Source: a virus (lineage: Duplodnaviria > Heunggongvirae > Uroviricota > Caudoviricetes). Taken from it: a stretch of DNA of 64,000 nucleotides. The notes beneath the pieces were generated by a model that saw nothing but the letters and a program-made list of their open reading frames with translations, was not told the origin of the DNA and made no database searches. A program made the translations under genes and the position numbers. Where the stretch lies: IMG/VR virus record IMGVR_UViG_3300012359_000001, positions 38,417-102,416 of that record. One strand, 5' to 3'. This document shows, piece by piece, positions 13,551-58,800 of the stretch (its first letter is position 1; every line of letters begins with the position of its first letter).

Positions 13551-14155
13551 AGTGAGCGGGTTGTGTGTTGTGGTACAGGGGTGTCGATTGCGCGTGCAAT
13601 ACGTCCGAACTTTTGAAACTCTTGTATGAACTTGTGTTCGTGAGGTCCGAGATAGACAATAGCAAGAGGGTACCCAAAGTGTTGAGTAGTGCCATCCGGT
13701 CGATCAAACTTTATGTAACCACGATGGAAACATATAGGGTAGTCATAGAGAGGCTGAAACCATACGCAAGAAGAATTGCCGCCGCAAAGAAGAATTGCTT
13801 GACTTGTACGTCCCTCAACATATTCATGTAAAAGCTTCTGTGTGAATACCTCTTGAAACCCATATGTAGACCCTAAAAGTTCTGGGCGTATACGCCCATA
13901 GGGGGGATTGAGCCACACGTTACCCTTCCATTCCTTACCTAACCCATCATCCTCTTTCGTGTAATAGCGTGCCGCCTTGACCGTTCTATTGGCAAGTTCA
14001 CAGGAGGCAGGGTCTAAATCTATCGAACCCATAACACGCCTTGCGGCATCAACATATGGAGCAGGAGTAAACCACTCATTATCTTTGCTTGCTTGCGCTG
14101 GTAGAGACATGACATCAAACAGTGTTGCCATATCACTCTCTCGAACTATCTGCAT
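13532..14155 (-). CDS. dam: DNA N6-adenine methyltransferase (phage Dam family)
   Basis: WFTPAPYVDAARRVMGSIDLDPAS plus NVWLNPPYG (motif IV NPPY). Confidence 0.75.
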   Translation of the reverse strand: MQIVRESDMATLFDVMSLPAQASKDNEWFTPAPYVDAARRVMGSIDLDPASCELANRTVKAARYYTKEDDGLGKEWKGNVWLNPPYGRIRPELLGSTYGFQEVFTQKLLHEYVEGRTSQAILLCGGNSSCVWFQPLYDYPICFHRGYIKFDRPDGTTQHFGYPLAIVYLGPHEHKFIQEFQKFGRIARAIDTPVPQHTTRSLWEVEA

Positions 14156-15858
14156 GTTGCCTCCATAAACTCTCGATACGGGTTGTTCACCGGACGGTAC
14201 CCTTCTCCATATGCAGCACTCTTGCTCTTATCTACAGCTTTCAACACACAACGACAATGAGGATGTGCGACAGGGACGCGGTTCCCACTCGGAAACTTAG
14301 AACCAACCTCACGTATCACCCGATCATTCTTCTGACATCGCTCACAAGAAAGTGAGTTGGCTAGCCATTGGATATGCGTCACACCCTGCTCTCGTAGTAC
14401 CGCAAGTTGTTGTTCCTCACTATCGTCGAGATACATCAGTTCCTTCTCGTCATAGTCAGGTCTGTAGTGTTTTTGAGGCGGCATTGATTCAGGGACAGGC
14501 GCTTCATCCCCTGGTTGCGGCAACACGGGATCGTTCGCATCAACCGGCTCATGGATGGCTTGTGGTGCTCTTGCGGGGGTAGTGAGTGATTGCAACGCAT
14601 ACTCCATCAACTTATCGGCAGGGATGAGCACTTGACCGATACGATACACGTTACCTTCTGGCACCTCTGGCAAGCCCTGTAGCACCCTGGCTTCATTGAG
14701 CAGGCACGCGCCTTGCATATAGGACTGTACAGCGCGTTGGGCTTGTGCTGTCTTCTGTGCCTGTACCATCTCCTGTATGACCTCGACACTTTCCTTGTCA
14801 TAGTAGAGATAGGCACCGCTATTCTTGAGGTCAGGGTACATCGGCACCAGCCAGTTATTCCACATGCCATACAAGTCGTCTAAGTCAGGAAATATCGCCT
14901 CAGTGTAACTAGCGGCTTTGGCTTCCATCATGTTGTTGTAGGTAGAGCTGCTGGTATCGCCAATGAGTTGCGGCGGCATGTTGTAAATATTGGCAATCAA
15001 GATCGCGTTATACTTGATACTCTCCAACCAATCCAGTTCAGCAGGAGGCAAGCCCATGCTTTGCCATGTCAAGCCTGCATCAAGAATAGGCGGCACGCCA
15101 GCATTACGCGATCCGCTTAACTTCTCTTTCAAGAGTTGCTGCAACCGAGTGCGATCATTGAGCGAAAGCGCTGTAGGCACCGTCCAGGCACCACTAGGAC
15201 GAGCACTATTCTGCACCAGTGCGAGATCCCACTTCCTTGTACCGGTTTGCATGTCAATGAGGATAGCAGCAACCTCGATAGGACTCATGCCAAAGTAAGG
15301 ATTGTCTGGATTGAAATATTTTGTATGACCAATATTCTCAGCCGCAATAGGCTGGTCCATCGCTTCATACTTGTAGGCAGAGACACCACGCACTTTATCA
15401 GGGATAGGCGCTACTCTGTCAGGACGTAAGCACCACAACTCGTCAGGAGGTCCGTTCTTCGCACGAATGGCATACTGGAAATTATTACCAGATATCAGTT
15501 TGTAGGCAAGGCACGCCTCACGATACGCTACCCCTGATTGCTCATTGTTGGGCTTGTTGAGCCTGTCAAGAAGAGGGTGTTTCTCTATCTTCTTTTGCTT
15601 TGTTTCATCGGTATATAGCAAAGGTGGGATAGAGCCGCCATTACGCGAAATGTAGCCTACGCATTTCCATACTGTGTTATCAGTGTATCCCTCTTTTGCA
15701 AAGGAGCGGTAATTTCTCGGCATCGTGACCGGTTGAGGCGCGTTCCCATACGCAACCAGACCAGAATAGGCAGGGTTGGCCTTTTGCTCTTGCCAGTCGG
15801 TATGCGTAGGGTTGAAGAAGGCATGGAACCGTTGCTTGAGGCTAACCACGTGTACCAT
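14146..15858 (-). CDS. Portal protein with a C-terminal MuF/SPP1 gp7-like head morphogenesis motif
   Basis: Large portal-like body. The C-terminus ...NRVPVAHPHCRCVLKAV matches the HxxCRC motif of the MuF family. Start placed at the ATG at 15858 after an AAGGAAGG RBS, downstream of a terminator hairpin. Confidence 0.7.
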   Translation of the reverse strand: MVHVVSLKQRFHAFFNPTHTDWQEQKANPAYSGLVAYGNAPQPVTMPRNYRSFAKEGYTDNTVWKCVGYISRNGGSIPPLLYTDETKQKKIEKHPLLDRLNKPNNEQSGVAYREACLAYKLISGNNFQYAIRAKNGPPDELWCLRPDRVAPIPDKVRGVSAYKYEAMDQPIAAENIGHTKYFNPDNPYFGMSPIEVAAILIDMQTGTRKWDLALVQNSARPSGAWTVPTALSLNDRTRLQQLLKEKLSGSRNAGVPPILDAGLTWQSMGLPPAELDWLESIKYNAILIANIYNMPPQLIGDTSSSTYNNMMEAKAASYTEAIFPDLDDLYGMWNNWLVPMYPDLKNSGAYLYYDKESVEVIQEMVQAQKTAQAQRAVQSYMQGACLLNEARVLQGLPEVPEGNVYRIGQVLIPADKLMEYALQSLTTPARAPQAIHEPVDANDPVLPQPGDEAPVPESMPPQKHYRPDYDEKELMYLDDSEEQQLAVLREQGVTHIQWLANSLSCERCQKNDRVIREVGSKFPSGNRVPVAHPHCRCVLKAVDKSKSAAYGEGYRPVNNPYREFMEATCR

Positions 15859-15870
15859 CCTTCCTTGAGC

Positions 15871-15914
15871 AAATAAAAAAGGTCGCATCCTCCACACAAA
15901 GTAGAGTAGCGACC
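15871..15914 (-). terminator. Rho-independent terminator (minus strand) upstream of the portal start
   Basis: GGTCGC...GCGACC stem (15881-15914) followed on the minus strand by TTTTTTATTT (15871-15880). Confidence 0.45.
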
Positions 15915-15993
15915 TAGCAGGCATAAGCGCCCTAGCAGTCTTATTGCTTGTAGTATAACATACAAGCAACCATTAATGTCACACTATCTGCAA

Positions 15994-17124: not shown

Positions 17125-17376
17125 TTAATTTCTCCAGGACGTGATATCTGGTATATTTTCAACTTCCATAGGATCTTCCAGATCGTACCGTCTATCTCCC
17201 TCTGCAAGTCTATTGAGGGTATGCTTCACCAGATCATAGGCACGTTGAGCAATAGTCTCTTCCCACTCAGCACGCCAATCATCCTGAAAAGGCGTTTCAA
17301 CCGTGATAACACTCGCCTTCAATAGTTCGTCTAACAGCAACTTCGCAAAACCTGAAAAATGTGTGTCACGCTCCAT
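17125..17376 (-). CDS. Hypothetical protein
   Basis: 83-aa ORF. Confidence 0.3.
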   Translation of the reverse strand: MERDTHFSGFAKLLLDELLKASVITVETPFQDDWRAEWEETIAQRAYDLVKHTLNRLAEGDRRYDLEDPMEVENIPDITSWRN

Positions 17377-17578
17377 GCTGTACCTCCTCTTGTCCCTTCA
17401 GATAACACGACTGGCACCAATAATCGACGCTCTCTAGTTTATCGTCTTCAGCACGATTGAGGACACCAACGACAACCACCGCTAACGCTCCACAGACGCA
17501 CTCTAGACGCCCACCGCCACGTAACATCACAATGACTGGTTGCCACTTGCTATCCCCTTCAGTATCCTTCTCATTCAC
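17366..17578 (-). CDS. Hypothetical Cys-rich small protein
   Basis: 70 aa with CVCG and CQSC pairs. It abuts the IS left end. Confidence 0.3.
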   Translation of the reverse strand: MNEKDTEGDSKWQPVIVMLRGGGRLECVCGALAVVVVGVLNRAEDDKLESVDYWCQSCYLKGQEEVQHGA

Positions 17579-17584
17579 ACGAAC

Positions 17585-18895
17585 CTCCGTTCAGGAAGCC
17601 CTACGGCTTCAGCCAAGGGAGGAATGAACGGCTTCCGCAGAAGCATTATTGCGTATTGACGATATCCCTCTAAGTGTGCTATAATACTGACATGAAACAA
17701 ACCATGCTCTTGAAACTGGCACCATCGCCAGAACAACAGAACGCCCTGCTTGAAGTCATGCATGCCTTTAATGATGCGTGTAATATGATCGCGCAAGTGG
17801 CATACGATGAACAACTTGCCAACAAGTTCAAGTTGCAAAAGTTGGTCTATGCCACCGTACGCAAGGACTTCAAGTTGTCGTCTCAGTTGGCAATACGCGC
17901 AATCAGCAAAACGGTGGAGTCCTACAAGCATGATAAGAGCATCAAAGTTTCTTTCCGCCGTGAGGGTGCAATCACCTATGACGAGCGGGTAATGTCCTTC
18001 AAAGGGTTGAATGAAGTCTCCCTGCTCACTCTGCAAGGGCGTGTGTTGGTTCCGTTTCGTATCGGCGGCTATCAGGAGTCTCGACTTGACCAAATCAAGG
18101 GGCAGGCCGATCTTCTCTTGAAGGGAAATACCTTCTATCTTGCAGTCACCCTGGACGTGCCAACTCCTGAACCCTATCAACCGTCTGAGACGTTGGGTGT
18201 TGATCTCGGTATTATCAACCTTGCTACCGCGTCGGATGGTGAGACGTTTAGCGGACAGGCGATTGAGCATACCCGCATACGCATGCTCTCGTTGCGAACA
18301 CGTTTGCAGAAGGTTGGCACGAAGTCCGCAAAGCGCCACCTCAAGAAACTTTCCGGTCATGAGAAACGGTTTCATCGTAACACGAATCATGTGATCTCCA
18401 AACATCTGGTACATAAAGCGAAAGTCAATGGACAAGAACTCGCGATTGAAGACTTAAGGCACATTCGTAAGAATGCAACGGTTCGGAAGTCTCAGCGCAA
18501 TCGACACGCCTCCTGGTCCTTCTGGCAACTGCGCTTCTTCCTCTCCTACAAGGCGGCGCTTGCGGGTGTTCCCTTGCACGTGGTAGACCCGCGTAACACG
18601 TCTCGAACGTGCCATGTGTGCGGACACTGCGAGAAAGCGAACCGCAAGAGTCAAGCCCTGTTCCTCTGTAAACAGTGCGGCATGTCGATGAACGCTGACA
18701 TCAACGCCGCAATAAACATATCTAGGGCTGAAGTCATGCAGCCTATGGCATCGGGACGCGCCCAGGTGCAAGCCGTTGGGTTTTAACTCAGGCGGTCATG
18801 ACTCTTGCGCTCCCTCTCCATACCGTTCAGGAAATTTACCCTTTGCCGTCTCTCTCTGGGGATAATCTGAAATATTCCCTATCAGTGGAGCAGAG
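17585..18895 (+). mobile_element. IS200/IS605-family element carrying only tnpB (IS1341-like). Boundaries approximate.
   Basis: Subterminal hairpins at 17600-17650 (GAAGCC..GGCTTC; GCTTCcgcaGAAGC). tnpB at 17692-18786. The motif CCGTTCAGGAA is repeated near both ends (about 17590 and 18832). Confidence 0.55.
17692..18786 (+). CDS. tnpB: TnpB (IS605 OrfB) RuvC-like RNA-guided nuclease family
   Basis: RuvC-I LGVDLGI, RuvC-II AIEDL, zinc finger CHVCGHC...CKQCG, and RuvC-III NADINAAINI. TATAAT sits 12 nt upstream of the ATG. Confidence 0.85.
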   Translation: MKQTMLLKLAPSPEQQNALLEVMHAFNDACNMIAQVAYDEQLANKFKLQKLVYATVRKDFKLSSQLAIRAISKTVESYKHDKSIKVSFRREGAITYDERVMSFKGLNEVSLLTLQGRVLVPFRIGGYQESRLDQIKGQADLLLKGNTFYLAVTLDVPTPEPYQPSETLGVDLGIINLATASDGETFSGQAIEHTRIRMLSLRTRLQKVGTKSAKRHLKKLSGHEKRFHRNTNHVISKHLVHKAKVNGQELAIEDLRHIRKNATVRKSQRNRHASWSFWQLRFFLSYKAALAGVPLHVVDPRNTSRTCHVCGHCEKANRKSQALFLCKQCGMSMNADINAAINISRAEVMQPMASGRAQVQAVGF

Positions 18896-18981
18896 ATAGC
18901 AAATGCGTGTAATATCTCCTGCCGAATATGCTCTACTGCGTCAAGCCATTCCTGCTCGCCTGCATCTGAAAATGTTGCTCT

Positions 18982-19194
18982 TCAGTCATGCGGTACGCGC
19001 CCTCTCTCTAATCGTTCCATCTCCTCTAATTCTTGCCATTGTCGCTCAATCCATTCGCGTGTGTAGCGTTCCACCTCACCACGATCTGACTTACAGCGTA
19101 CCTCCACATAACACCGTCCATTCTCAATACACAACGTAAAGTGAGTTGTCCCCCAAGTCGGGCATCGTACAGGGAGACGCTTGTTGTCAGTCAT
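18982..19194 (-). CDS. Hypothetical Cys-rich protein
   Basis: ORF trimmed to the internal Met to avoid a 73-nt overlap. Confidence 0.3.
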   Translation of the reverse strand: MTDNKRLPVRCPTWGTTHFTLCIENGRCYVEVRCKSDRGEVERYTREWIERQWQELEEMERLERGRVPHD

Positions 19195-21396: not shown

Positions 21397-21768
21397 TTAT
21401 TCCTTTGTACTGTCAGGAAAAAATGAGAGGTCTAATGCACATTCCCCATGTCCGATTGAGATGGTATAGGCGATTCTCCCATACCTTCTGTGCGTAGGTT
21501 CACCGATTTGTCTGATTGCATACCCGTCAGTTATTTCTCTGATAACATCCTCTGCTGGTGAGAGGGTTTCAGACCAGGGGATAGCGATGAGATCAAAGTC
21601 TTTTGCAAGGCTCCCATGAACAGCAAGTGCGTACCCATGCCTTTGAAATATCTTTGCCAGTTCAGGGTACAGCGCGGCGGCATACACGGGCGCATAGTTC
21701 GGCTTAATCTGCTCAGCCTCTTTCATCTCATCATTCGTCTCCATAGCCATGTGACGACGCCCAGGCAA
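21397..21768 (-). CDS. Hypothetical protein
   Basis: 123 aa. Overlaps the terL start by 38 nt. Confidence 0.35.
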   Translation of the reverse strand: MPGRRHMAMETNDEMKEAEQIKPNYAPVYAAALYPELAKIFQRHGYALAVHGSLAKDFDLIAIPWSETLSPAEDVIREITDGYAIRQIGEPTHRRYGRIAYTISIGHGECALDLSFFPDSTKE

Positions 21769-23110
21769 ACGGGTCTATCCGTTCAATCTCTGCAATCGTT
21801 GGTATCAGTACGGTTGTTGAGGTGACTTCTTCACCTCTCAATGGGACATTAGGACAAAACTTGTACGCGCATAAGTAGCGTTCACAATCTTTTGCATGAT
21901 CAAACTTCTTCACTGGTGCTTCATTCACTTTTTTACCATTAGAGGTATCCCAGATGTAATTCTCAAATTCAGCTTCAGAGCAAATAGGCAAACTTTGTTT
22001 CTGTAGCACCGGATCGACTTCTACTAGACTATCCCGTAAGAAGTACATGCCTGCTCGTCCGTTGGCATTCGGGCGTAATCTTGCTTGCATTTCTTGTATA
22101 CCCACTGACACCGCTTTGTTTGCAGCCAGGGTGCTATATCCAGTATAGCGTTCAAGCGTAGCGCGGTCTTCAGCATTATGATCGCAAATAATTGCAGATG
22201 GAGGTGGTTCACCCTGTGTTATCTGCATGATCAGTTTTGCGTGGTCTTCTACTAGTGTACCGGTCTTATAAATCTCATGGTAGCGGTACAGTTCGTCGTC
22301 GGGTGACTCGGCCCAGGCTTGCCATACAAACGGGTTGCGAAAGCCAAAGTCTACCACCCAATAACGCGGCCAATCGGCAGGGATATCAAAACGGTTGACA
22401 ATGTGCAGAGCAGGGTTCCATTCCTCCTCATACACCATACCCTCAGAGCTGGCCCAGATACCTTTACGCAACCGTAAGTACAGCACCCCTGATAACGCGT
22501 CTAACGTGGCAAGGTCTTCAGCAGTGCAGGCAGGGTTATCTTCATGCTTGCTATCAAGGAGCAACGTCTTACCCGCGTCACAGCGTTGTTTGAGCCAATG
22601 GTTAGCAGGACCAGGGTTACAGTCTCCAAGCAATTGCTGGTAGGGCATGACGTGATTACGTAGTCGTGATGTGAGGCTTTCCCAATCCACTTGATCCAGT
22701 TCTATCGCCTCTTGCGGATAGATAAAATCCCACTCTGATGACATGATCTTTTGTGGATCATCTAACCCGCCCACGGCTATGATACTCCCGTTGGGATACT
22801 CATATTGCTGATCAGTCACATTGAAGCGTATCAGGCTGCCGAGCCAGCCTTGCGGTAATACCTTCGTCTCATACGTCACCATAGCGGTTTGTGTGAGACT
22901 TTTGCGCGTTTTACGTACCATCAAGCCGCGCATACCCTTATACTTGTCAGCACAGTAATGCAGCTTTTCTATGGCACACCTAGATTTTCCAGTATTTGCC
23001 GCTCCGCACAAAAGCAACTCCCTACGAGCTGAGCGCCATGCTTTAAGAGCACCGCCGAAGGGTTGATACGGGCGCTTCTCTTTGACGTAGGAAGAGGCAA
23101 GAGTGATCAC
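21731..23110 (-). CDS. terL: Terminase large subunit
   Basis: Walker A-like LLCGAANTGKS near the N-terminus. 459 aa with a C-terminal nuclease-like region. The small subunit gene lies immediately upstream. Confidence 0.85.
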   Translation of the reverse strand: MITLASSYVKEKRPYQPFGGALKAWRSARRELLLCGAANTGKSRCAIEKLHYCADKYKGMRGLMVRKTRKSLTQTAMVTYETKVLPQGWLGSLIRFNVTDQQYEYPNGSIIAVGGLDDPQKIMSSEWDFIYPQEAIELDQVDWESLTSRLRNHVMPYQQLLGDCNPGPANHWLKQRCDAGKTLLLDSKHEDNPACTAEDLATLDALSGVLYLRLRKGIWASSEGMVYEEEWNPALHIVNRFDIPADWPRYWVVDFGFRNPFVWQAWAESPDDELYRYHEIYKTGTLVEDHAKLIMQITQGEPPPSAIICDHNAEDRATLERYTGYSTLAANKAVSVGIQEMQARLRPNANGRAGMYFLRDSLVEVDPVLQKQSLPICSEAEFENYIWDTSNGKKVNEAPVKKFDHAKDCERYLCAYKFCPNVPLRGEEVTSTTVLIPTIAEIERIDPFAWASSHGYGDE

Positions 23111-30927: not shown

Positions 30928-31998
30928 TTACGCCCTCCGCAATGCGCGGCGCTGTCCGATCTGGTCTGCAAGAACGGCATACCCGCGAGCATTCGCTTTC
31001 TCAGGATCGGCTATCTGCACAGCGTTCTTGATGATTTTTTGTAGCGATGAATGGAAGTAGTACGCGCCGCCGCCGCAATGCAGCACTGATTTAAAGCTAG
31101 AAGCTACTTTGCCGCTCTGGTTACTCCACACACTAGAGATTTTTGCATTCTTCTCATCACCAGTTTCCTTGATAGCGGCTTTGACCCACTGCTGCAAATC
31201 TATCCCTGAAACTTGTATTCCATCAGCATACAGTTCTGGATAGGCACCAATATTGATACTTGCACGAAGGACAGCCTGCATTTCTGGCTCTGAGAGTTCA
31301 CGCCCGTATTTCGCCTCAAACTTTGTGCTCAACCGATAGAGGGCATTATTGACGCCGATCTCGAAACTATCGCACTGCTCAGTATGTGCCTTGTGTCCAT
31401 CAAAGCGAAGCATGTTGGTCGTGAGCGATCCGCTATCAACTATTCCTATCGTACTGGTCTTATCAAAACCGTGATAGATAGCAGCTCCCGCGCCCTCCAT
31501 GAACACCTTGACCGTCTCGACGCTGATCGCCATATCACGCCCATTGAACTGATAGCGATACACGCCGGTTAACTCTTCAACGATCTTGCTAGACTGTTCC
31601 TGGTAAGCACGCAAAGGAACGCCCATAACCAGATTGATGGAGAACTCCTGTATCCCAGGCCATATCTGCGCGGCAGCCAGCGAAGCAAAGCACATGATAG
31701 AAACCTGAGTACGTTTGTTGTGATAGCGGTGCTTGTCTTTAAAATCTGAAGTTGGGTTAAGTCCCTGCTCAGCAAGATCAGACAAAAAGTACACTGATCC
31801 GTCATATTCCACCATCAACTCGTTAGGATTGATGGTTTCACCGAGTCCACTGCCAGATTTCAGGGATTGATACTTCTTTAAGTTCCCTTCCGAGATGAGG
31901 CTTGACGCGTCGAACTCCAATAATCTGCCAGTATCCGTCATAACAGCGATATTTGTACGCTGATTGCCCCTGTCGAAGCCTAAATTCAATGTTTTCAT
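30928..31998 (-). CDS. parM: Actin-like ATPase, ParM/StbA family
   Basis: Phosphate-1 LGFDRGNQRTNIAV, phosphate-2 IVDSGSLTTN, adenosine HCGGGAY. Confidence 0.7.
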   Translation of the reverse strand: MKTLNLGFDRGNQRTNIAVMTDTGRLLEFDASSLISEGNLKKYQSLKSGSGLGETINPNELMVEYDGSVYFLSDLAEQGLNPTSDFKDKHRYHNKRTQVSIMCFASLAAAQIWPGIQEFSINLVMGVPLRAYQEQSSKIVEELTGVYRYQFNGRDMAISVETVKVFMEGAGAAIYHGFDKTSTIGIVDSGSLTTNMLRFDGHKAHTEQCDSFEIGVNNALYRLSTKFEAKYGRELSEPEMQAVLRASINIGAYPELYADGIQVSGIDLQQWVKAAIKETGDEKNAKISSVWSNQSGKVASSFKSVLHCGGGAYYFHSSLQKIIKNAVQIADPEKANARGYAVLADQIGQRRALRRA

Positions 31999-36382: not shown

Positions 36383-37153
36383 TTACTTCCAGTAGTCTAT
36401 TTTTTCAGACATCCTGTACTCAAAACGAGTTGCATCTGCAATAGTTCGATGCAAGGCAACCACTGAATTATCAACAGAATAGTTGATACGACGCACTTCA
36501 AAGACAGGCTGAAAACGAGCCAGTTTTAATGTCTCGCACTCAGCAAATGTTGGTGGACGGGACTGGATGGTAAGATCGGTATGGTCAACTGATACACCGT
36601 ACTTCTGTTTGATAGCAAGCATCGTATCGAAGCCAGGGTCTTGACGCATCTGCTCTACAAAAACACTGGCAAGCGAAACCGGATACCAGATATGACCAAT
36701 CCTCAACGGTTGCTCATCTGTTCCCTGTAACCGTGATCGATGCACAACGTGAACACCTTCAGGGATAGCAATGTCTCCGTCTCTTTTCATAAAAAGAATA
36801 GCCACATCAGGAGGCATCGATGCAATCACAGGATCAACCAGGTTTTCTTCCACCGTCTTCAACCCTAATTTTTGTAAATGGGTTATAAAATTTGGCGTCA
36901 GACCAGGGAGAATGATCCGCAATTGTGCAACCTTGTAACGGTTACCAGCAACAGGAACAACAAGTCCTTCAGATCGTAGGATGAGCAACGCATTTGTAAC
37001 AGTCACGCGTATAGTTTTCCACTCTTTCGCAATAGAGGCGATAGAGGGAAGTATCCCTTCATTTCCGTAGTCTCCATTTTTAATCCGACTACGAAAATCA
37101 TCAGCTATCTGCTCAACTAGCGTCCCCCCTTCAGTATCACTCACTTCTTTCAA
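36383..37153 (-). CDS. GntR/HutC-family transcriptional regulator
   Basis: N-terminal GntR HTH (SIASIAKEWKTIRVTVTNALLILRSEGLV) plus a UTRA-like C-terminal domain. Confidence 0.7.
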   Translation of the reverse strand: MKEVSDTEGGTLVEQIADDFRSRIKNGDYGNEGILPSIASIAKEWKTIRVTVTNALLILRSEGLVVPVAGNRYKVAQLRIILPGLTPNFITHLQKLGLKTVEENLVDPVIASMPPDVAILFMKRDGDIAIPEGVHVVHRSRLQGTDEQPLRIGHIWYPVSLASVFVEQMRQDPGFDTMLAIKQKYGVSVDHTDLTIQSRPPTFAECETLKLARFQPVFEVRRINYSVDNSVVALHRTIADATRFEYRMSEKIDYWK

Positions 37154-52131: not shown

Positions 52132-53004
52132 ATGACGAAATATTGTTCGTATGCTGTTGTTGGGTTTGTGCTTCTCGTTGCCTTATCCTGGTTTCTTGTT
52201 GCCAATTTTACCTACAAAGTGGATGCAGGCAAAGTTGGACTGCTCATCAACTACACGCAAAAGGAGAAGAACGGATCGCCTCATGTGACGGTTATCCCTC
52301 AATCATCTTTTATCTGGTATAACTCATGGAACAGCCAAGCGGTCTTTGAATATCCGATCGCACTACAAACGCTTACGCTGGTAGCGAACGCTCAGGAGGG
52401 ACAGCAGCAGGGAGATGACTCAGTAACGTTTGTGACTCAGAACGGGATACCGCTCAAAATAGATGTCACGGTACAATGGCGCGTAACCAACCCGGCACAA
52501 CTCTATTTCCTCATGCCAGGGGTGCCGCTGGACGGGGATTTCAACCATGACGTCTCCACCAAGCTGGTCAGGCAGAGTGTGATCCATGCCCTCAATCAAT
52601 CAGGGTCAGCGTACCAATGGCAAGAGGTGTCAAGCCACGAAGACCTGATTGAGAAAAATATGGCAATGGAGCTGTACCCTCTGCTTGACAAATATGGCAT
52701 TACCGTTGAGCAGATCGCACTCGGTCAACCGCATTACTCTCGACAGCAACAGGCGGCAATTGATAATGTCGCGCGTGCTCAGCAGGAGACACAACAGGCG
52801 CAATTCCTCAAGCAAAAAGCGGAGTATGAAGCACAAGCCAATCAGATAACAGCGCAAAGTCAGGCGCAACAAATACGTGTCATTAACGAGCAATTGGCAA
52901 AAAGTCCAGACTACTTAAAATATCTCCAAGTGAAGGAGTGGGATGGGCATCTTCCTGCAACGCTCGTCAATGGCAATAATCCTGTCTTCACAGCAAGCAA
53001 ATAG
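52132..53004 (+). CDS. SPFH/band-7 (stomatin/prohibitin-like) domain protein
   Basis: N-terminal TM, then KVDAGKVGLLINYT...IPLKIDVTVQWRVTNPAQLY (SPFH core), then a Gln/Ala-rich coiled C-terminus. Confidence 0.7.
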   Translation: MTKYCSYAVVGFVLLVALSWFLVANFTYKVDAGKVGLLINYTQKEKNGSPHVTVIPQSSFIWYNSWNSQAVFEYPIALQTLTLVANAQEGQQQGDDSVTFVTQNGIPLKIDVTVQWRVTNPAQLYFLMPGVPLDGDFNHDVSTKLVRQSVIHALNQSGSAYQWQEVSSHEDLIEKNMAMELYPLLDKYGITVEQIALGQPHYSRQQQAAIDNVARAQQETQQAQFLKQKAEYEAQANQITAQSQAQQIRVINEQLAKSPDYLKYLQVKEWDGHLPATLVNGNNPVFTASK

Positions 53005-57714: not shown

Positions 57715-58800
57715 ATGAAGACAAGTAAGAAGAAGTGGAACGAACCATCAACACCGGTCATGCCTCAGCAGCAAAATGCGTGGCATCCGGTAACAGTTCG
57801 AGAACTAAGAGAGCAACGGGAGCGTTTTAATATCGATCCTCCTTTTCAACGGAAACAAGCATGGAACCGTCGGCAATGTCAGCAACTCTATGAGACGATG
57901 TTCCAGGGACGACCGATAGGGACACTTGAAGGGTATCGTGAGAATACAGCGATGGAGGGCGGAACCGTCTTTGGTATTATTGATGGACACCAGCGCATTA
58001 CGGCTATTCTGCGCTTCGTTGATAACAATATTAAAACCTGGACGTATCCTCAAAAGTTGCAACTCTTCCCAGGTTCCGAAGCGCCGAAACAGCCTGGACG
58101 ATTTTTCAGAGATCTCGATGTGAATGCAAGGAACTACTTTCTTGACTATCGGGTGGATATCAACCTTATCCCAAAGATGACTGACCACGAATTAGTTGAA
58201 CGGTTCCTTGAGATACAGTGTCATGTGCCGCTCTCGCCTGCTGAACGATTGTATGCCTATCCTAGTAAAGCGAAGGAACTAGCAAAGCGGATCGGCTCAC
58301 ACTTACTTTGGGATGGGTTCTATGCAGGAGAACGGCATAGAGGACAGGTTTTTCAAAGTTGCCTCTGTCTTCTGGCAATTGAACTGCAAGGCGGTATTGC
58401 CGATCTACGAGGTCAAAGCGTGTACATCAATAGCCTTGCGTGCGGGAAGCGTGACGATGAGATTACAACCACAGTAGAGCAGAGAGTGAGAGGGCATTTG
58501 GATGAGGTGTGTTTACTCTTTTCAGGGATGCAGTTCACTGACAGGATAGCCAGCGTGGTCATGTATCAAGCTGTGATGAAGTTGAAAGAGTGCGGATATC
58601 AAATAAAAACAACCGATCGCGGGAAACTGACAACCTGGATACTGAACATCATCAATGAGTCAAAGCAGGTAATGGGGATACCTGTCTATAACCAGCCAAT
58701 CCAACGCCTCCTTTACGCTTCATCTCAAAAAGTATTCTGGGAACATAACCTGAAAGTGGTGTTGCGGCTAATGGATATACCTGAATCGCAAGAGGGATAA
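57715..58800 (+). CDS. DUF262 (ParB-like, GmrSD N-terminal type) domain protein lacking an HNH/DUF1524 domain
   Basis: FQRKQAWNRRQCQQLYETMFQGRPIGTL...VFGIIDGHQRITAIL matches the DUF262 pattern (DGQQR with His). No His-Me nuclease motif in the C-terminal 200 aa. Confidence 0.55.
   Translation: MKTSKKKWNEPSTPVMPQQQNAWHPVTVRELREQRERFNIDPPFQRKQAWNRRQCQQLYETMFQGRPIGTLEGYRENTAMEGGTVFGIIDGHQRITAILRFVDNNIKTWTYPQKLQLFPGSEAPKQPGRFFRDLDVNARNYFLDYRVDINLIPKMTDHELVERFLEIQCHVPLSPAERLYAYPSKAKELAKRIGSHLLWDGFYAGERHRGQVFQSCLCLLAIELQGGIADLRGQSVYINSLACGKRDDEITTTVEQRVRGHLDEVCLLFSGMQFTDRIASVVMYQAVMKLKECGYQIKTTDRGKLTTWILNIINESKQVMGIPVYNQPIQRLLYASSQKVFWEHNLKVVLRLMDIPESQEG

Follow-up and report, generated by a model that had tools for sequence, protein, structure and literature searches.

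A probable tnpB-only IS200/IS605 element of the AmaTnpB clade between the terminase and portal genes of an uncultured phage

The 64,000-nt stretch of DNA analysed here (the window) carries what is, with high probability, an intact, non-autonomous member of the IS200/IS605 insertion sequences, of the tnpB-only (IS1341) type and the AmaTnpB clade, inserted 3′ of a TCAC tetranucleotide in the genome of a phage whose host is probably a Ktedonobacteria-like member of the Chloroflexota; for its transposition and homing, a mechanism is proposed below. The element is ordinary, and it reveals no new kind of system. It is one more case among many phage-borne TnpB elements, and its main value lies in annotation: base-precise ends, a transposon-adjacent motif (TAM), a scaffold and a guide can be offered for a TnpB of the AmaTnpB clade in an uncultured phage, probably one of Ktedonobacteria.

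Results

Table 1. Coordinates of the insertion sequence, its predicted parts and the neighbouring phage genes, in window positions
Feature	Position	Strand	Remarks
Whole insertion sequence	17579-18802	+	1224 bp; IS1341-type (tnpB-only) IS200/IS605, probable; ends from the family alignment
TCAC, target and putative TAM	17575-17578	+	Directly 5′ of the left end
Left-end subterminal imperfect hairpin	17587-17631	+	Outer stem CCGTTCA (17587-93) / TGAACGG (17625-31); inner stem 17599-17603 / 17615-17619
Sigma-70-like promoter in the left end	17656-17685	+	TTGACG, 18 nt, TGnTATAAT
tnpB coding sequence	17692-18786	+	364 aa, ATG start; predicted RNA-guided endonuclease
Predicted mature omega RNA scaffold	~18702-18802	+	~101 nt; 5′ end set by the AmaTnpB alignment only
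Omega RNA helix H5	18725-30 / 18739-44	+	GGGCTG / CAGCCT; compensatory changes
Omega RNA helix H7	18746-51 / 18766-71	+	Compensatory changes
Omega RNA pseudoknot	18733-38 / 18797-802	+	H5 loop GTCATG with the last six bases of the element, CATGAC
Right-end subterminal hairpin (H8) and invariant terminal TCATGAC	18773-18802	+	H8 is 18773-80 / 18788-94, 8 nt from the terminus; covarying
Predicted guide segment of the omega RNA	18803-18822	+	16-20 nt, TCTTGCGCTCCCTCTCCATA; starts TCTTGCGCTCCCTCTC; phage DNA flanking the right end
Phage gene abutting the left end	17366-17578	-	70 aa; GTG start is the reverse complement of CAC in the TCAC TAM
Nearest real gene on the right	18982-19194	-	70 aa; start coupled to the stop of the upstream gene by an ATGA overlap
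Portal	14146-15924	-	
TerL (large terminase)	21731-23110	-	47% identical to TerL of Streptomyces phage Dagobah

The window is phage DNA, and the same TnpB protein is present on the ENA contig DNA_vOTU_6973. The minus strand of the window carries tape-measure-like, capsid, protease, Dam and portal genes, small genes, TerL, TerS, and DnaB and RepO-like genes, and amid these minus-strand genes tnpB is one long plus-strand open reading frame, antisense to the phage late operon between TerL and portal (Table 1). A preliminary description of the sequence had put it on the opposite strand of the accessory region between terminase and portal, and there it lies, with every neighbour on the minus strand. 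GC skew shifts at the element, from values near -0.2/-0.3 to near 0, a change that fits a gene lying on the opposite strand.

The TnpB protein matches Pfam PF07282 (Cas12f1-like_TNB; E 1.9e-22, 79.6 bits against a cutoff of 26.3), Pfam PF01385 (OrfB_IS605; 33.8 bits, cutoff 30.5) and NCBIfam NF040570 guided_TnpB ("RNA-guided endonuclease TnpB family"; 165 bits, cutoff 100), and also PHROG transposase families. The nearest solved structures in the PDB are TnpB and Cas12f, with which the RuvC and zinc-finger motifs align. The RuvC D-E-D triad, comprising D171 (in GVDLG), E253 (in AIEDL) and D336 (in NADINAA), is invariant in 17 homologues of 69-100% identity, as are the 4 cysteines of the CCCC zinc finger in the TNB domain (C307, C310, C326 and C329). 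With the models passed and these residues invariant across the 17 homologues, the earlier claim of a complete tnpB with all three RuvC motifs and the zinc finger is borne out for the open reading frame as a whole. From a different perspective, the gene might be taken for a nuclease-dead, TldR-like derivative or an IS607-type TnpB, which would serve as an RNA-guided regulator and not as part of an IS200/IS605 element, and in this respect the IS607_TnpB and IS200_TnpB "exception" models of NCBIfam are both weak matches, at 71 and 69 bits (the former, NF038280, reaches 70.9 bits where 350 are required, and the latter falls far under its cutoff). However, the D-E-D triad is complete and does not vary among the homologues, tnpB has no serine recombinase gene beside it, and the guide predicted below is the flank beside the transposon end. 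TCAC, the lack of a target duplication, the two hairpins and the kinship with AmaTnpB, an active nuclease, are all in keeping with IS200/IS605; a regulator of this sort is already contradicted and must be regarded as extremely improbable.

The extent of the element was defined by alignment of its relatives: 25 related loci were retrieved, and 15-17 could be aligned at both flanks for boundary definition. On the left, the flank alignment shows family similarity beginning straight after TCAC in 17 of 17 loci, with upstream DNA that differs from locus to locus, and in all 17 the TCAC is located 16-19 nt 5′ of a conserved GGAAGC. On the right, ...GG(T)TCATGAC is common to every aligned locus and divergence sets in from the next base on; here phage DNA resumes at 18803, right after the terminal TCATGAC. 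The last four bases of the element, TGAC, are one base off the TCAC TAM. Profiles of the left and right ends, run with nhmmer, each have one match in the 64,000-nt window, at this element. There is no target-site duplication when the flanks (...CATTCAC on the left, TCTTGCGC on the right) are compared, no terminal inverted repeats were detected at the element termini by repeat search, and no TnpA was found within the window; all of the aligned relatives are tnpB-only as well. Moreover, the element has two traits of the IS1341 group, a subterminal hairpin at each end and a site of insertion just 3′ of a fixed tetranucleotide serving as TAM. The preliminary assignment to a TnpB-only IS200/IS605-type element therefore stands, based on the lack of TnpA in the window, the TCAC, the hairpins and the ends conserved in 15-17 loci. 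The span originally given, 17585-18895, needs correction, since the alignments give 17579-18802: the left limit had been set 6 nt inside the element and the right limit 93 nt too far out.

The insertion point falls exactly between the Shine-Dalgarno sequence and the GTG start of the 70-aa gene at 17366-17578. The original Shine-Dalgarno of this gene, GGAGAGGGAG (18810-18819), is carried on the minus strand of the guide region, and when the flanks are joined in silico, giving ...CTTCTCATTCAC followed directly by TCTTGCGCTCCCTCTCC..., the minus strand reads GGAGAGGGAG-CGCAAGA-GTG, with the Shine-Dalgarno 7 nt from the GTG. Because joining the flanks yields a normal Shine-Dalgarno-to-start arrangement, this constitutes independent support for both junctions. 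In its present position the gene is preceded by a substitute Shine-Dalgarno, GGAGG-TTCGT-GTG (the reverse complement of 17579-17588), in which GGAGG corresponds to 17584-17588 and is thus inside the left end of the element. Since other members of the family do not conserve this GGAGG, its presence may reflect either chance or selection after insertion.

Beyond the right end comes intergenic DNA of the phage that is not part of the element, 179 nt in all (18803-18981). For the minus-strand gene at 18982-19194, a search of 1.84 billion representative proteins gave homologues with identities of 58% (E 2e-19) and 53% (E 6e-14), and for this reason the public call of a plus-strand open reading frame at 18903-19139 is probably spurious. 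A degraded second copy of the element in this flank was considered, an idea prompted by two exact repeats, one of 11 nt (17587/18823) and one of 13 nt (17774/18903), and was rejected as unsupported: matches of similar length are scattered window-wide, and local alignment was no better than for the best shuffle. The position of the 11-mer repeat (17587/18823) is odd.

The hairpins at both ends that had been proposed to flank tnpB are supported by covariation. For the left end (alignment A4, 14 loci), 6 of the 7 outer-stem pairs are changed on both sides, pairing holds in 88% of cells, and the covariation score was reached by none of 500 shuffles. In the left-end promoter, a promoter scan found 11 of 12 positions matching, with an extended -10, and ATTGAC, TATAAT and the 6-nt gap from the -10 hexamer to the ATG are kept across the family and in AmaTnpB. 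With the ATG only 6 nt past the -10 hexamer, the tnpB mRNA would be leaderless.

It was the TCAC motif predicted here that pointed to AmaTnpB, whose element is reportedly one of those described by Altae-Tran and colleagues in 2021. The TAM of AmaTnpB, from Alicyclobacillus macrosporangiidus, has been experimentally determined as 5′-TCAC (Nety et al. 2023, PMC10278001), and AmaTnpB cuts its own mRNA into omega RNA (PMC10278001); the processed form consists of catcgctgcggtgaacattcgccgTAGGGCTGAAGTCATGCAGCCgtacgcggtatagcgcaggctacaaCTGCAAGCCccgccctttagggctgGGGTTCATGAC plus a 20-nt guide (PMC10278001, supplementary file). For the present family, a consensus fold was derived from the last 230-260 nt of 15 elements (alignment A3). 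Across these 15 loci, pairing extends to 95% of cells, and 15 pairs have changes on both sides; none of 500 shuffles scored as high as observed, and slid controls were paired at 35-43%. Inside helix H7, this element has a short GGG/CCC hairpin, where other family members have a 30-nt hairpin insertion. For the pseudoknot, the support is one compensating double change, GTCAAG/CTTGAC at locus L007, and pairing of this kind with bases beside the guide is a known characteristic of the guide RNAs of TnpB and Cas12 (PMC10097598). Helices farther upstream (18620-18710) vary by wobble only and are weaker. No Rfam family matches the omega RNA region, and third-codon conservation gave too weak a signal to place the 5′ end of the RNA. 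A long-range pairing between 18643-58 and 18794-809 was discarded because it enters the non-conserved guide and is absent from relatives. On this comparative sequence evidence, the 3′ part of tnpB together with the right end is predicted to code for a structured RNA, conserved in the family and related by homology to the validated omega RNA of AmaTnpB.

The predicted guide comprises the bases from 18803 on, because family sequences diverge directly after TCATGAC. There is no other TCAC-plus-guide site in the window, where the sole match with 3 mismatches (53201) is preceded by CACT. The preliminary description had put the omega RNA at 18650-18890; its location over the tnpB 3′ end and right end was correct and its start roughly right, but the predicted RNA ends at 18802, about 90 nt earlier. 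Likewise, the predicted guide is indeed drawn from the adjacent right flank, not from the 16 nt past 18895 but from 18803-18818/22, so that with the original placement the wrong guide and target would be named.

Homologues of this TnpB are numerous, with more than 5000 in a large protein set. The best match other than the protein itself has 79% identity, and the named sources are metagenome-assembled genomes of Chloroflexota or Ktedonobacteraceae; since the closest relative is at 79% protein identity, there is no basis for claiming recent mobility. The 3 nearest relatives (78-79%) have mobile-element or phage-like surroundings, with integrase, GIY-YIG, HNH and ParA genes. TnpB is common in phages, as judged by 505 catalogued phage records that match the protein. 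No near-identical DNA was found in catalogued phages, none of which gives any match at the DNA level. No element-free site emerged when IMG/VR was searched with TnpB, with the protein on either side of it and with the DNA of the flanks: portal-related phages (up to 70% identity) have a different and much shorter terminase-portal region, and homologues of the 18982-19194 gene have unrelated genes downstream. One related phage contig (L027) has another member of the TnpB family together with a complete IS605, and the Y1 TnpA present there belongs to a different element. The preliminary description had named, as findings that would count against it, the lack of an omega RNA-like structure and the lack of further copies. 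What was found is a covarying structure that shows homology to the omega RNA of AmaTnpB, and more than 5000 homologues, among them 15-17 alignable loci, all with conserved ends.

No second copy of the element was detected in the window. This single copy, along with the lack of close copies elsewhere (best match 79% in protein), the direction of transcription against the phage late operon, and the case of one family member (L011) with a premature stop at codon 15, could be accommodated by the notion of a decaying relic, with tnpB or the omega RNA non-functional and the element merely tolerated between genes. However, the open reading frame is full length, as in relatives, the catalytic and zinc-finger residues are all intact, and so are the promoter, both hairpins, the covarying RNA helices and the terminal motifs, which makes a relic quite improbable.

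Discussion

The mechanism that we propose for an intact element of this type begins with the left-end promoter, which would drive a leaderless tnpB mRNA, and with TnpB, which would trim the 3′ part of its own transcript to leave about 100 nt of omega RNA, with the adjoining 16-20 nt of phage flank (18803-18822) as guide. The TnpB-omega RNA complex would then cleave DNA in which TCAC is followed by TCTTGCGCTCCCTCTC. This is the joint that would be left by TnpA excision, and phage genomes that lack the element should have it as their uninterrupted site; in either case, recombinational repair from an element-bearing copy would restore or spread the element. The occupied locus should escape cleavage, since its TCAC is followed by the left end instead of the target, and the DNA that matches the guide has TGAC in front of it instead of TCAC. 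For transposition, a Y1 TnpA would have to come in trans, from the host or from a co-resident element. A role of TnpB in homing or retention has been established for IS605 elements (PMC10055086; reviewed in PMC13565253), and the same review (PMC13565253) discusses TnpA-independent spread of IS605 among plasmids and, as a possibility, among co-infecting phages.

It is also conceivable that the element is an immobile passenger kept for competition, with a fixed-guide TnpB that cuts insertion-free co-infecting relatives (marker exclusion, or non-restorative homing, in the manner of the free-standing homing endonucleases of T-even phages) and with no transposition involved. From this perspective, a window without TnpA is what one would expect, the guide by construction targets the uninterrupted phage site, the 3 nearest relatives at 78-79% are in mobile-element or phage-like contexts, a related phage has a member of the same TnpB family, and the TnpA-independent spread of IS605 discussed in PMC13565253 would offer a precedent. 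However, the ends retain all features for TnpA-dependent mobility (hairpins, TCAC and TGAC), and no element-free sibling phage was found. Moreover, the biochemistry would be identical to that of the main explanation, with the biological role alone differing. We consider an immobile competitor of this kind possible and, on balance, doubtful. More speculative still, and in our estimate rather unlikely, is the idea that the element is the RNA-guided counterpart of a phage homing endonuclease, one that would cut TCAC followed by TCTTGCGCTCCCTCTC in insertion-free siblings during mixed infection and copy itself and flanking markers without TnpA, and that would be tolerated because the left-end GGAGG replaces the displaced ribosome-binding site of the phage gene. 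In any case, TnpA-independent homing between co-infecting phages is a moderately interesting possibility, and TCAC plus TCTTGCGCTCCCTCTC provides a concrete site for asking about it.

Comparison with known systems

For the preferred explanation, an intact tnpB-only element mobilizable by a TnpA in trans, the closest point of reference is AmaTnpB. The two have the same TAM, TCAC, experimental there and predicted here, and the same left-end layout, namely GGGAGGAA, TTGAC (TTGAAC in AmaTnpB), about 17-18 nt, TATAAT, 6 nt and ATG. They also have the same omega RNA blocks: TAGGGCTGAAGTCATGCAGCC, an identical 21-mer, then TGCAAGCC, G(G)TTCATGAC and the terminal TCATGAC. In AmaTnpB the guide comes directly after ...GGTTCATGAC, as it comes directly after TCATGAC here, and in the N-terminal 114 aa, the only part that can be compared, the proteins share 56% identity. 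The differences are in the setting, a Firmicutes chromosome there and a metagenomic phage with Chloroflexota/Ktedonobacteraceae relatives here, and in the scaffold, where the H7 insert is not alike and the length is 106 nt there versus a predicted 101 nt or so here. The ISDra2 TnpB of Deinococcus radiodurans (PMC10097598) is more distant in sequence (E 1.4e-9) and has the same RuvC D-E-D triad and CCCC zinc finger, the same overlap of the scaffold with the tnpB 3′ end and right end, a pseudoknot with the nucleotides just 5′ of the guide, and a guide of 16-20 nt taken from the flank. Unlike the present element, ISDra2 uses the TAM TTGAT, not TCAC, and has its own TnpA.

At the level of classification, the IS1341 group (tnpB-only, as defined in PMC13565253) has the same lone tnpB, the same lack of terminal inverted repeats and of target duplication, and the same hairpins at both ends and fixed tetranucleotide beside the insertion; nothing essential differs, and this copy merely happens to be in a phage. 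The same kind of gene, annotated as a TnpB "transposase", is found in the genomes of cultured phages, including Thermus phage MN1, Rhodothermus phage RM378 and Lactobacillus phage iLp1308. The MN1 protein is the best phage match, yet is only 38% identical over the full length, and the RM378 protein is 48% identical in a partial match covering 59% of the query. Finally, by analogy with the free-standing homing endonucleases of the T-even phages (SegF, SegB and the Mob genes), the expected outcome of a mixed infection would be the same, with the element-free co-infecting allele cut and then repaired from the element-bearing genome. The difference is in the means, since recognition is by protein in the T-even enzymes, whereas here it would be RNA-guided and the gene lies within a transposon with defined ends.

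Insertion site and flanking genes

The element lies exactly between the original Shine-Dalgarno sequence and the GTG start codon of a single phage gene, the minus-strand gene that abuts its left end. That Shine-Dalgarno, GGAGAGGGAG, is now found beyond the element's right end, while the GTG, read as the reverse complement of the window, has stayed beside the left end. The left end itself contributes a new GGAGG that precedes the GTG by 5 nt, and this motif is not present in the other members of the element's family. These features fall within window 17575-17588 and 18803-18819.

On the right flank, 2 overlapping ORFs are found on opposite strands. The minus-strand ORF has genuine homologues (58% identity, E 2e-19), and an ATGA overlap couples its start to the gene upstream; the plus-strand call is probably spurious. 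An exact 11-nt direct repeat, CCGTTCAGGAA, has one copy in the left-end hairpin, on its 5′ arm, and the other 21 nt past the right end. Since 11-nt matches are common throughout the window, the repeat is likely due to chance. The placement of the copies, close to both element ends, is nonetheless odd. Elsewhere, the phage also encodes 4 further proteins, listed in the table.

Window coordinates of features in and around the element and of other phage genes
Feature	Window position	Strand	Remark
Original Shine-Dalgarno GGAGAGGGAG	18819-18810	-
GTG start of phage gene	17576-17578	-
CCGTTCAGGAA, first copy	17587-17597
CCGTTCAGGAA, second copy	18823-18833
ORF, 78 aa	18903-19139	+	Public gene call on the contig
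ORF, 70 aa	18982-19194	-	Overlaps the 78-aa ORF
Actin-like (ALP/Alp7A) protein	30928-31998
GmrSD N-terminal-domain protein	57715-58800
GntR/UTRA regulator	36383-37153
SPFH/Band 7 protein	52132-53004

Omega RNA forms and possibly degenerate relatives

Family members carry 2 forms of the omega RNA (right-end alignment A3, columns 201-245; window 18752-18765). The short form, a GGG-ACGCG-CCC hairpin, is shared by the window element and related loci L005, L007, L011, L017, and L027; at the same position, the hairpin of the other form, which covaries, is longer by about 30 nt, and in bearers of this long form the tnpB stop comes earlier relative to the right end. More helices are predicted at 18620-18710, ahead of the point where the processed omega RNA is inferred to begin. 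Their variation consists almost solely of G-U wobble changes, and they could reflect structure in the mRNA or arise as an artefact of conserved coding sequence.

In L011 (1501-2615), tnpB has a stop at codon 15 while the ends and omega region are conserved; this member is possibly a pseudogene that still produces the omega RNA. On the IMG/VR viral contig L032 (5480-5560, minus strand), a hairpin resembling the left end (91% identity over 47 nt) stands alone: it is preceded by ATCAC and has no tnpB. It could represent a miniature derivative or else a remnant.

TnpB elements in a related phage

A 95-kb phage contig, related through its portal (56% identity), encodes a TnpB of the window's family at 74% identity (L027:10001-11897; L028:105-2001). 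An ORF6N/BstA_C-domain gene directly follows it, and in L027 the called ATG of this gene falls within the element's terminal TCATGAC. A complete IS605-type element is present on this contig as well (L027:1-1551), with a Y1 TnpA and a different TnpB of 428 aa, only 28% identical to that of the window.
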